Origin: an uncultured Actinomycetes bacterium
Lineage (GTDB): Bacteria; Actinomycetota; Thermoleophilia; Gaiellales; Gaiellaceae
Assembly (NCBI GenBank): GCA_963833655.1
Contig: CAWHYL010000003.1
Coordinates: 160,100 to 224,099 of the forward strand
Reading direction: 5' to 3'
Length of the DNA stretch: 64,000 nucleotides
The translations under genes and the position numbers were made by a program. The notes beneath the pieces were generated by a model. It did not search any database, was not told where the DNA came from, and saw only the letters and a list, made by a program, of their open reading frames with translations. Shown here piece by piece: positions 19,826 to 32,382 of this stretch. The stretch's first letter is position 1. Each line of letters starts with the position of its first letter.

Positions 19826-21031
19826 CTACGACCGCAGATACGTGAGGACTGCCAACACGCGCCTGTGGTCCTCGGCCGTGGCCGACAGCCGGAGCTTCCC
19901 GAAGATGCTCGTGACGTGCTTCTCGACGGCGCGGAGCGTGATCACGAGCCGCTCGGCGATCGCCTGGTTCGACTTGCCCTCGGCCATCAGCTCCAGCACC
20001 TGCCGCTCGCGCGGTGTCAGATCCTCGAGCGGGTCGTCGCGGCGCCGGCGGCCGACCAGCTGCGAGACGACGGCGGGATCGAGCGCGGATCCGCCCTCGG
20101 CGACGCGGCGCACCGCCGCGGCGAACTCGTCCACGTCCGACACCCGGTCTTTGAGCAGGTAGCCGACGCCCTCGGCGTTCTCGCCGAGCAGCTCCATCGC
20201 GTACGCCGGCTCGACGTACTGCGACAGGACGAGCACGCCGGTGTCCGGCCAGCGCTCGCGGATCTCCTGTGCGGCCCGCAGGCCCTCGTCGGTCTGCGTC
20301 GGCGGCATGCGGATGTCGATCAGCGCGACGTCGGGCTTGTGCATGCCGACGTGCCGTAGGAGGTCGTCGGCGGTGCCGCTCTGCGCGACGATCTCGAAGC
20401 CGGCGTCCTCGAGCAGCCGTGCGATTCCCTCGCGCAGCAGCACGGAGTCGTCCGCGAGGACTACGCGCACGCCGCGAAAGCCTCTCCGGGCCGTGCTGAG
20501 CGGCGGGAACCGCGTCGCGAGGCCGGGCGCCTTGAGCTGGAAGAGCCGCTCCGGCGCGTCGATCCCGGGCAGCTGGTGGTCGCCGAGATCCTCGACCTCG
20601 TGCTCGGAGTCCAGCGCCTCGCGCGTGCGCGCGGAGAGCAGGATCTGCCCGCCGCTGCCGGCCTGGCAGATGCGGGCCGCCCGGTGGACGTCGAGCCCGA
20701 AGTACGTCCCGTCGCGGATGTTCGGCTCGCCTGTGTGCAAGCCCATCCGCACGCGCAGGTCGACGCCGCCCGGCCACTCGTGGTCGACGAAGGCGCGTTG
20801 CGCCGCGACGACGCTCGTCGCAGCGGCGCGGGCGTCCGCGAACACGACGAAGAACTCGTCGCCGCGCTGGTCGATGACGATGCCGTTGCCGGCCTCGACC
20901 GCCTCGCGGAAGAGCCGCCGGTGGTCGTCGAGCACGTGTGCGTATCGGTCACCCAGCCGCTGAAGCAGCTGCGTCGACCCCTCGACGTCCGTGAAGACGA
21001 GTGTGACGGTGCCATGTGGAAGATCCGGCAT
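19826..21031 (-). CDS. Cyclase-homology domain / REC / LuxR-HTH fusion response regulator
   Basis: N-terminus VTLVFTDVEGST...GDEFFVVF...RMGLHTGEP...GLDVHRAARI (class III cyclase fold). NarL-type receiver (VVLADDS..DIRMPP..GYLLKD). GerE helix-turn-helix (LTPRERQVLELMAEGKSNQAIAERL). Confidence 0.85.
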   Translation of the reverse strand: MPDLPHGTVTLVFTDVEGSTQLLQRLGDRYAHVLDDHRRLFREAVEAGNGIVIDQRGDEFFVVFADARAAATSVVAAQRAFVDHEWPGGVDLRVRMGLHTGEPNIRDGTYFGLDVHRAARICQAGSGGQILLSARTREALDSEHEVEDLGDHQLPGIDAPERLFQLKAPGLATRFPPLSTARRGFRGVRVVLADDSVLLREGIARLLEDAGFEIVAQSGTADDLLRHVGMHKPDVALIDIRMPPTQTDEGLRAAQEIRERWPDTGVLVLSQYVEPAYAMELLGENAEGVGYLLKDRVSDVDEFAAAVRRVAEGGSALDPAVVSQLVGRRRRDDPLEDLTPRERQVLELMAEGKSNQAIAERLVITLRAVEKHVTSIFGKLRLSATAEDHRRVLAVLTYLRS

Positions 21032-21037
21032 CGCAGC

Positions 21038-30300: not shown

Positions 30301-32382
30301 GCCCTGCGTGACGGCCTGGGAGACCTCGGAGATCGCGCGCAGCTGGGTCGTCAGCGTGCCGGCGAGCTGGTTGACGTTGTCGGTCAATCCCTTCCAGACG
30401 CCGCTGACGCCCTTGACCTCGGCCTGCGTGCCCAGGCGTCCTTCGGTGCCCACCTCGCGGGCGACGCGCGTGACCTCGGCGGCGAACGTCGAGAGCTGGT
30501 CGACCATCGTGTTGATGGTCTCCTTCAGCCGGAGGATCTCGCCGCGCGCGTCGACCGTGATCTTCTTGCTCAGGTCGCCCTTCGCGACCGCCGTCGTCAC
30601 GTCGGCGATGTTGCGCACCTGCCCGGTCAGGTTGTCCGCGAGCTGGTTGACGTTGTCCGTGAGGTCCTTCCAGGTGCCGCTGACTCCCTTCACACGGGCC
30701 TGGCCGCCGAGCTTCCCCTCGGTGCCGACCTCGCGCGCGACACGTGTGACCTCGTCCGCGAAGGACGAGAGCTGGTCGACCATCGTGTTGATCGTGTTCT
30801 TGAGGGAGAGGATCTCGCCGCGCACCTCCACCGTGATCTTCTTGCTCAGGTCGCCGTTCGCCACGGCCGTCGTCACCTCGGCGATGTTCCGCACTTGGGT
30901 CGTCAGGTTGTCGGCCAGCGTGTTGACGTTGTCGGTCAGGTCCTTCCACGTGCCGCTGACTCCCTCGACGTTTGCCTGCCCCCCGAGCCGTCCTTGCGTG
31001 CCGACCTCGCGCGCGACGCGCGTGACCTCGGCTGCGAACGAGCGCAGCTGGTCGACCATCGTGTTGATGGTCTCCTTCAGCTCGAGCACCTCGCCGCGTG
31101 CGTCGACGGTGATCTTCTTCGAGAGGTCGCCGTTCGCGACGGCCGTCGTGACGTCGGCGATGTTCCGCACCTGGTCGGTGAGGTTGTCGGCCATCGCGTT
31201 GACGTTGTCGGTGAGGTCCTTCCATGTGCCGCTGACGCCCTTGACGCGCGCTTGCCCGCCGAGCTTTCCGTCGGTGCCGACCTCGCGCGCGACGCGCGTC
31301 ACCTCGTCGGCAAACCGCGAAAGCTGGTCGACCATCGTGTTGATGGTGTTCTTGAGCTCGAGGATCTCGCCCTTGACGTCGACGGTGATCTTCTTCGAGA
31401 GGTCGCCGTTCGCGACGGCCGTCGTGACGTCGGCGATGTTGCGCACCTGGCTCGTCAGGTTGCCGGCGAGCGTGTTGACGTTGTCGGTGAGGTCCTTCCA
31501 CGTGCCGCTGACGCCCTTGACCTGAGCCTGCCCGCCGAGCTTGCCCTCGGTGCCGACCTCGCGCGCGACACGGGTGACCTCGTCCGCAAACCGCGAAAGC
31601 TGGTCGACCATCGTGTTGATGGTGTTCTTCAGCTCGAGCACCTCGCCCTTGACGTCGACCGTGATCTTCTTGCTCAGGTCACCGTTCGCGACGGCCGTCG
31701 TGACGTCGGCGATGTTGCGCACCTGCGTCGTCAGGTTGTTCGCCATGAAGTTGACGTTGTCCGTGAGGTCGCGCCAGATGCCGGAGACGCCCTTGACGCG
31801 GGCCTGGCCACCGAGAATCCCCTCGGTGCCGACCTCGCGCGCGACGCGCGTCACCTCGTCGGCGAACGAGCTCAGCTGGTCGAGCATCGTGTTCACCGTC
31901 GTGCCGATGCGCCGGAACTCGCCCTTCACTGGGCGGCCGTCGATCTGCATCGTCATCTTCTGCGACAGGTCTCCGTCGGCGACGGCGTTCAGGACACGCG
32001 AGACCTCGACCGTCGGGCGGACGAGATCGTCGATCATCGAGTTGACCGAGTCCTGCGAGCGCCGCCACGATCCCTTCGCGCCCTTGACGTCGATGCGCGC
32101 GGTCAGCCGGCCCTCGCGACCGACGACCTTCGCGACCCGATCGAGCTCTTCCGTCAGCCGCTCGCGCCGCTCGGCGAGCTGGTTGAACGCCTTCGCGACG
32201 TCGCCCATGACACCGCTCTTCCGTGCGTTGAGGCGCACGTCGACGGCTCCGTCCCTCGCCGCCCGGAGCGCGTCGAGCAGCTCGTGCAGTTCCTGCTTCG
32301 AGACTTCGACGGTGCCGTTCGAGGGCGCGCGACTCGCCGCCCTCCCCGTACGCGATTTGGTGTTGGTTGCAGCCAAGCTCAC
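27310..32382 (-). CDS. Soluble poly-HAMP / GAF / coiled-coil / HisKA / HATPase_c / three-REC hybrid histidine kinase (1690 aa)
   Basis: ORF 27310..32382. No TM segment. About seven 92-aa double-HAMP units, a GAF domain, an E/Q heptad tract, H-box [12 protein letters not shown]-boxes DTGVGI and GGTGLGLSI, and three receiver domains. Confidence 0.9.
30210..31900 (-). repeat. Tandem 276-nt (92-aa) repeats encoding the HAMP array
   Basis: The string ctggtcgaccatcgtgttgat recurs at about 30497, 30771, 31047, 31324 and 31599, with a diverged copy near 31877. The protein unit [21 protein letters not shown]...NTMVDQLS repeats every 92 aa. Confidence 0.9.

Follow-up and report, generated by a model that had tools for sequence, protein, structure and literature searches.

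We have analysed a 64,000-nt stretch of DNA from an uncultured soil Actinomycetes bacterium of the Gaiellaceae (contig CAWHYL010000003.1, positions 160,100 to 224,099), referred to here as the window, in which genes for a CheR-type methyltransferase and a CheB-type methylesterase are embedded in a cluster of histidine kinase and receiver genes. The cluster occupies positions 19,826–32,382 of the minus strand and consists of seven tightly packed open reading frames, all at the coordinates given in a first-pass annotation of the sequence and all with codon-position GC content typical of coding sequence (GC3 of 0.81–0.93 in a window of 70% GC). A Pfam domain scan returned the architecture proposed earlier for each of the seven proteins. 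The first gene (27,310–32,382) encodes kinase 1, a soluble hybrid histidine kinase of 1690 aa composed of a poly-HAMP array, a GAF domain, a Glu/Gln-rich coil, a DHp-CA kinase core and three receivers, and is followed by genes for a 283-aa CheR-type glutamate O-methyltransferase (26,453–27,304; CheR_N and CheR) and a stand-alone CheB methylesterase/deamidase catalytic domain of 189 aa (25,883–26,452; CheB_methylest only). Next are kinase 2 (23,511–25,883), a 790-aa protein of the architecture REC-PAS-GAF-PAS-HisKA-HATPase, and a single-domain receiver (23,107–23,505). Judged by domain content and gene order, these five genes are almost certainly a member of a widespread cfc/Ask-type module of hybrid GAF kinase, CheR, receiver-less CheB, REC-kinase and REC. 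The remaining two genes encode kinase 3, a 690-aa polytopic membrane protein (21,038–23,110, from GTG 23,110) in whose open frame, spanning 21,038–23,191, about eight hydrophobic segments precede PAS_4-HisKA_3-HATPase, and a 401-aa response regulator (19,826–21,031) with Guanylate_cyc, REC and GerE domains, the last a LuxR helix-turn-helix. As counted previously, the cluster contains three kinases and six receivers, with no Hpt domain detected in the seven proteins at E≤0.01.

The six junctions measure, in order, +5, 0, −1, +5, −4 and +6 nt, in agreement with the gaps and overlaps of −4 to +6 nt first reported, provided that GTG 23,505 is taken as the start of the lone receiver gene and GTG 23,110 as that of kinase 3. 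The CheR stop codon abuts the CheB ATG, the stop codon of CheB and the start codon of kinase 2 share 1 nt, and kinase 3 overlaps the receiver gene by 4 nt. Homologues annotate the lone receiver at 118 aa, from a start equivalent to GTG 23,463, rather than the 132 aa obtained from GTG 23,505, which would leave a gap of 47 nt instead. The 42 nt located 5′ of the annotated start (23,464–23,505) form an in-frame open extension beginning at a conserved GTG, rendering the true start of gene 5 ambiguous; the first codons of the longer frame (V-G/A-N-R-I-R) are kept in one relative (L001). A hairpin scan of the minus strand detected no terminator-like hairpin inside the cluster and a strong one just 3′ of the last gene (19,607–19,634; an 11-bp stem with 8 GC pairs and a T-rich tail), while a sigma-70 promoter scan gave no match, as expected for an actinobacterium of 70% GC. 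The start/stop overlaps and the lack of internal terminator-like sites argue for co-expression of the seven genes.

Both modification enzymes look catalytically intact. CheR aligns with Bacillus subtilis CheR (5ftw) and Salmonella CheR with conservation of the S-adenosylmethionine (SAM)-site motifs, and shows 85–100% identity to proteins encoded on numerous soil-metagenome contigs, of which some are named as Gaiellaceae metagenome-assembled genomes. CheB aligns with solved CheB catalytic domains, and its catalytic triad, Ser10, His37 and Asp130, is invariant in a 56-sequence alignment. The absence of a CheB receiver, also reported before, does not reflect a misplaced start, as the abutting CheR stop codon prevents extension of the frame upstream to a receiver. 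In addition, the 150 nearest CheB clusters in a library clustered at 50% identity are almost all 190–210 aa in length, indicating that this protein belongs to a large receiver-less CheB subfamily. Relatives of CheB include the single polypeptides CheB-REC-HisKA-HATPase, CheB-REC and CheR-CheB. A further five (P0124, P0125, P0145, P0208 and P0217) carry a C-terminal zinc-ribbon-like domain, CPDCGG...FRCRTGH, sometimes ahead of a second CheB domain. The conservation of CheR across environmental contigs, the invariant catalytic residues and the case for co-expression are difficult to reconcile with an assemblage of two or three unrelated two-component systems packed by chance, in which CheR and CheB would be decaying, functionless remnants. 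Such an assemblage would be in keeping with the absence of genes 6 and 7 outside close Gaiellales relatives and with the fact that kinase 1 relatives of Azospirillum, Streptomyces and Myxococcus function in the absence of CheR/CheB; overall, we regard it as very improbable.

Conservation of the gene order was surveyed in GTDB species representatives, a scan of which gave at least 599 matches, and the best 80 loci were examined by tblastn with the domains of the window. These loci derive from Actinomycetota, Cyanobacteria, Acidobacteriota, Gemmatimonadota, Chloroflexota, Bacteroidota, Myxococcota, Desulfobacterota, Pseudomonadota and Armatimonadota, and the gene order holds in at least nine phyla, the first nine named. 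The gene-neighbourhood check that the first-pass annotation had suggested bears out the co-occurrence. CheR lies directly upstream of CheB in 59/75 loci and a kinase lies upstream of CheR in 38/42, this kinase possessing a GAF domain and coil in 37 and also a poly-HAMP array in 27 of the 42. Downstream, a receiver directly follows CheB in 66/71 loci and a receiver plus kinase in 60/71, while a CheW or methyl-accepting chemotaxis protein (MCP) match within 10 kb is observed at only 1/80. On this synteny, the association of CheR/CheB with kinases is not incidental, and the element common to the linked kinases is GAF-coil-DHp, not poly-HAMP, as indicated by the 37 versus 27 loci. All seven genes are syntenic in five Gaiellaceae-type soil-metagenome contigs, and annotated Agrobacterium tumefaciens and Sphingomonas plasmids exhibit the order kinase-CheR-CheB-REC-kinase with 4-nt overlaps.

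Variants of the module are also found. In Deinococcus deserti plasmid 2 (L088, 6,841–14,313) and Deinococcus sp. QL22 (L090), a poly-HAMP kinase, CheR and a REC-PAS-kinase are present and CheB is absent, which, on gene content, is a methyltransferase-only form of the module. In five Nostoc loci (L025, L029, L030, L041 and L048) CheR is located ∼7 kb upstream of CheB with opposite-strand open reading frames between them, and other Nostoc loci have no CheR within 10 kb; the module appears to be disrupted or rearranged in this genus.

The first-pass annotation knew of no described mechanism of this kind. The gene arrangement itself is not undescribed, as the cfcABCDE cluster of Pseudomonas putida has the same gene order (PMC4951495) and the family of kinase 1 has been published (PMC13446029, PMC7643160). 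The cfc genes encode the hybrid kinase CfcA, CfcB (CheR3), CfcC (CheB3), CfcD and CfcE (PMC4951495), with a receiver in CfcD according to PMC4951495 and PMC6849547. In common with genes 1–5, cfcABCDE comprises a hybrid GAF kinase, CheR, CheB, a REC-containing protein and a fifth gene, with no MCP or CheA in the cluster, a likeness in described gene order; the sequence comparison covered an Agrobacterium CHASE3-like/GAF homologue, which carries the same Glu/Gln coil. In the first kinase of the present cluster, as in the cfc type, GAF precedes DHp-CA and receivers follow. The two differ in input and output. CfcA is membrane-bound with a CHASE3 sensor, whereas kinase 1 is soluble and gives no Pfam match to CHASE3, a poly-HAMP array standing in its place; the known target of CfcA is the GGDEF/EAL regulator CfcR, encoded elsewhere, whereas here a NarL-type pair is appended. 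What is new at this locus is a poly-HAMP input and an extra NarL-type output on a known but mechanistically unexplained module.

The criteria for a canonical chemosensory system, namely an MCP with its signalling hairpin, CheA plus CheW and a CheB with an N-terminal receiver, find no counterpart within the window, as had been stated for CheA, CheW and MCPs. The tblastn and Pfam searches were negative: no CheW or MCP match was obtained in the 64 kb at E≤1e-3 using manually entered query sequences for E. coli CheW and an MCP signalling domain, and the seven proteins contain no MCPsignal or CheW domain. A literature search on motility or chemotaxis in Gaiellales gave nothing informative. CheR and CheB could nevertheless be an ordinary adaptation pair that modifies conventional MCPs encoded elsewhere, their place in a kinase operon reflecting co-regulation only. 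Both proteins score as members of the CheR and CheB families with intact active sites, and the MCP and CheA negatives cover the 64-kb window of the source genome only. Against this, the pair is found next to GAF-coil kinases in at least nine phyla, CheW or MCP genes being near a single surveyed locus; CheB, in common with almost the entire subfamily, has no receiver on which CheA could act; and the authors of the cfc study state that a chemotaxis role has been excluded for that CheR/CheB pair (PMC4951495). We therefore consider this explanation decidedly unlikely. The Wsp system of Pseudomonas and the Che3 systems of Rhodospirillum centenum and Myxococcus xanthus provide precedents in which CheR/CheB-type enzymes tune c-di-GMP, development or transcription rather than flagella, but these retain an MCP, CheW and a CheA-type kinase, none of which occurs in this window or near 79/80 related loci. 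It is thus probable, from the genomic context, that the target of CheR and CheB is a kinase encoded in the operon and not an MCP.

Kinase 1, in which no credible transmembrane segment is detected, begins with a poly-HAMP array (30,163–32,295) of seven 92-aa di-HAMP modules, or ∼14 HAMP domains, as defined by motif period, DNA repeat and Pfam; GDLS and a second motif of 10 residues recur at 92-aa spacing. Pfam returned at least seven HAMP/HAMP_2 matches in addition to GAF, HisKA, HATPase_c and three Response_reg domains. The GAF domain (29,713–30,138; GAF_2, aa 749–890) is followed by the DHp domain (HisKA, His1013) and catalytic ATPase domain (28,660–29,373), also identified by PDB kinase-core matches, and by the receivers (27,334–28,515), in each of which the acceptor Asp, read directly from the sequence, is kept. 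Residues 11–309 match PDB entries 9TRK/9TRJ ('histidine kinase, Gcn4p') at E 1e-106. The source of these structures, PMC13446029 (2026), defines 'kinase-associated poly-HAMP arrays' as soluble arrays in which canonical HAMPs alternate with non-canonical ones, with GAF, DHp, CA and receivers coming next, and relates them to fungal and amoebozoan kinases; PMC7643160 describes M. xanthus AskA/AskB and Sorangium cellulosum Amb07 in comparison with fungal Nik1. Kinase 1 shares with AskA/AskB, Amb07, the fungal group III kinases Nik1/Os-1 and the 9TRJ/9TRK protein a soluble nature and 92-aa di-HAMP repeats followed by GAF-DHp-CA-REC, and on these features and its similarity to the solved member it belongs to the published poly-HAMP kinase family. 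AskB is directly followed by the kinase AskC, and AskA, AskB and AskC bind each other (PMC7643160). A REC-kinase is likewise located downstream here, but with CheR and CheB between the two kinases, and neither PMC13446029 nor PMC7643160 mentions CheR or CheB.

The di-HAMP modules are encoded by a 276-bp tandem DNA repeat (30,337–31,893; 5.6 copies with 83% matches), and kinase 1 orthologues range from 1507 to ∼2370 aa among relatives; the repeat and this range in length suggest that modules are frequently gained and lost. A 276-aa stretch of three modules (30,985–31,812) is 78–88% identical at the protein level in eight loci (L021, L028, L032, L042, L050, L052, L056 and L075) from Actinomycetota, Cyanobacteria, Acidobacteriota, Gemmatimonadota, Chloroflexota and Myxococcota, the adjoining CheR and CheB being only ∼50–70% identical, a pattern which points to either extreme constraint or horizontal spread of the modules. 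In Streptomyces fungicidicus p1 (L089, 6,393–16,603) a SpoIIE phosphatase, together with STAS and anti-sigma genes, comes after the poly-HAMP kinase, and in Streptomyces sp. NBC_01558 (L098) a SpoIIE phosphatase also follows the kinase and a SigF gene lies just upstream. From this gene content, the Streptomyces kinase appears to be wired to a partner-switching sigma-factor cascade and not to CheR/CheB.

A candidate target for the two enzymes is the Glu/Gln-rich coiled coil of kinase 1 (aa 903–1000; 29,383–29,676) that connects the GAF domain with the phospho-accepting His and is conserved in 46 non-identical CheR/CheB-linked kinases, hereafter the linked set. Glu and Gln constitute 55% of a 60-aa span of the coil, the maximum for the operon, compared with no more than 33% in the other proteins. 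Across the linked set the coil consensus opens N-x-x-L-E-[Q/E/A]-Q-[A/T]-x-[S/T], with Leu every seven residues and Asn at core positions. Residue Q297 of E. coli Tsr, an established methylation site, lies within the heptad EQQAASL. This heptad (Tsr 296–302; sequence and numbering verified with PDB 8c5v/6s1k) is matched at 6/7 positions by EEQAASL of kinase 1 (aa 935–941; 29,560–29,580), in which position 936 is Gln in 19, Glu in 15 and Ala in 7 homologues. Downstream, a 16-residue segment containing three Glu pairs (aa 951–966; 29,485–29,532) is near-invariant when CheR/CheB are adjacent, with E953 conserved in 44/46, E954 in 42/46, E960 in 44/46 and E961 in all 46 linked kinases. The kinase of PDB 7z8n, presumably of the GacS/BarA type, has the final third of the coil as well, so this part is generic.

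As a control, 13 relatives were taken from annotated plasmids, 11 of which have neither CheR nor CheB within 8 kb and form the unlinked set (Streptomyces/Streptantibioticus (4), Nonomuraea, Azospirillum, Sphingobium, Novosphingobium, Mesorhizobium, Bosea, Methylocystis and Paraburkholderia). The 960/961 pair is EE in 44/46 linked but 3/11 unlinked kinases (Fisher p 4e-6, kinship ignored), reading AE, EA, EQ or QE in the other 8/11, and EE is kept in the two Deinococcus plasmids that have CheR and no CheB. The resemblance to Tsr and Tar is one of site and chemistry: SAM-dependent Glu methylation with a matching esterase/deamidase is predicted here also, and the candidate, like the Tsr/Tar sites, is a heptad coiled coil with Glu/Gln pairs. 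In contrast to the Tsr/Tar system, there is no MCP signalling hairpin, CheA, CheW or CheB receiver in the window, and the substrate would be the kinase itself. Two ideas were rejected. EEQAASL is not a universal marker, being missing from two linked kinases (L014 and L036) and from Deinococcus yet present in the unlinked Azospirillum kinase. The poly-HAMP array was rejected as the CheR/CheB target, as 10/37 linked GAF-coil kinases lack it and the Agrobacterium homologue is CHASE3-like. Fusions of CheB or CheR with the same coil in cis were not recovered, the multi-domain matches retrieved being of different architecture (two CheB domains separated by a zinc-ribbon-like linker, CheR-CheB and CheB-REC-kinase). 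CheBR-PAS-kinase fusions may carry 'NEEL' repeats.

Several observations weigh against modification of the kinase 1 coil. The full MCP consensus [ASTG][ASTG]xx[EQ][EQ]xx[ASTG][ASTG] matches none of the seven proteins, only the half-site EEQAAS being present, at aa 935 of kinase 1, and the Tsr-like heptad has the irregular distribution just described. Three near-identical sphingomonad/Mesorhizobium kinases keep the 960/961 EE pair although unlinked; only about five lineages make up this set, which leaves the correlation statistically weak, and CheR/CheB could be encoded elsewhere in the genomes of these relatives. The Deinococcus module has CheR but no CheB. Finally, in a search of openly accessible literature, no report of a methylated histidine kinase or of CheR acting on a kinase was found, nor any paper naming a substrate of these CheR/CheB enzymes. 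Given its composition and conservation, we judge the chances that the coil is the CheR/CheB site to be evenly balanced.

The target of CheR/CheB might instead be kinase 2 or a complex of kinases 1 and 2, or CheB might mainly deamidate or partner structurally with the kinase 2 receiver. The adjacency of CheB with the REC-kinase is the most conserved of the module (REC 66/71 and REC-kinase 60/71, compared with CheR 59/75), CheB is fused to a REC-kinase in some organisms, its stop codon and the start codon of kinase 2 overlap, and the homologues AskA, AskB and AskC bind each other at micromolar affinity (PMC7643160). Kinase 2, however, lacks both a Glu/Gln-rich segment (maximum 33% versus 55%) and the conserved Glu-pair motif, and its architecture varies among phyla whereas the kinase 1 coil is conserved, so that we consider this alternative unlikely, though the strongest of the three. 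A narrower part of it is compatible with methylation of kinase 1: the fusions, the 1-nt stop/start overlap and the receiver that follows CheB in most loci suggest that the kinase 2 receiver works with CheB, whose regulatory domain may be supplied in trans.

The explanation we favour, with a probability of roughly 0.55, combines the five-gene module with tuning of the kinase 1 coil by CheR/CheB and a proposed route of phosphotransfer. The poly-HAMP/GAF rod of kinase 1 would sense an intracellular or physical cue. CheR would methylate Glu residues on the coil joining GAF to the DHp histidine, and CheB would demethylate them and deamidate Gln where present, the neutralisation of charge shifting the on/off equilibrium of the kinase as in chemoreceptor adaptation, but with no involvement of MCP, CheA or CheW. 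Phosphoryl groups would pass to the receivers of kinase 1 itself and to the receiver with which kinase 2 begins, which is translationally coupled to CheB and may act as the missing CheB regulatory domain, closing a feedback loop. Output would occur via the lone receiver and, in Gaiellales, via the membrane HisKA_3 kinase and the cyclase-REC-LuxR regulator. The earlier proposal that methylation tunes the input kinase thus stands as the most economical reading of the CheR/CheB-kinase linkage across 80 loci, with CheW or MCP near only one of them; that the kinase is methylated, what methylation does to it and by which routes phosphate is transferred, we infer.

Genes 6 and 7, a HisKA_3 kinase and a REC-GerE regulator, constitute a NarL/LuxR-type two-component pair, and the NCBIfam models nearest to gene 7 are MadR/MctR/NarL-type regulators. 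The previous suggestion of a transcription-directed phosphorelay does not extend to the conserved module: in the 80-locus survey the pair is seen only in close Gaiellales relatives, and by this distribution it is a lineage-specific addition outside the conserved module, predicted to give transcriptional output in this lineage. In the cyclase domain of gene 7, compared with the canonical catalytic residues by eye rather than by alignment, D15, D58 and R120 are present, His116 replaces the canonical Asn and there is no Lys four residues before D58; both metal-binding Asp residues are kept but the His substitution renders cyclase activity uncertain.

The cluster is flanked by genes for MMPL, SARP/BTAD, sigma-70 factors, a carboxyltransferase and a Cys/Met-metabolism pyridoxal phosphate enzyme. 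The last of these (32,469–33,437, minus strand) precedes the kinase 1 gene, in the same orientation, by 86 nt, is syntenic in two Gaiellaceae loci (L001 and L004) and could be co-transcribed with the cluster, a link to methionine/SAM supply being speculative. A protein with GGDEF and HD-GYP (HD_5) domains is encoded 5.5 kb from the cluster (37,919–39,754, minus strand) and is also found near the module in L004. By analogy with the homologous P. putida module, which signals to a c-di-GMP enzyme, a functional link between this protein and the module is conceivable.

For orphan CheR/CheB pairs, among them CheR3/CheB3 of P. putida, no substrate has been known; the present locus, together with related ones from at least nine phyla, suggests a specific candidate, the conserved Glu-pair coil of the adjacent kinase. 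We tentatively suggest, at somewhat less than even odds, that histidine kinases of a large family spanning many phyla are themselves methyl-accepting: a dedicated CheR, together with a CheB that has no receiver, would covalently tune the coil before DHp, and the receiver of the next kinase would serve as a detached CheB regulator. If so, chemoreceptor-like memory would exist in two-component signalling with no MCP, CheA or CheW, and the finding would bear on the regulation of fungal Nik1-type fungicide targets, which are counterparts of the kinase 1 sensor. The same module is present in cultured, tractable hosts, namely P. putida, Sphingomonas and Agrobacterium with its pAt plasmids. If confirmed, methylation-based adaptation would extend from chemoreceptors to ordinary two-component kinases, including the poly-HAMP family.

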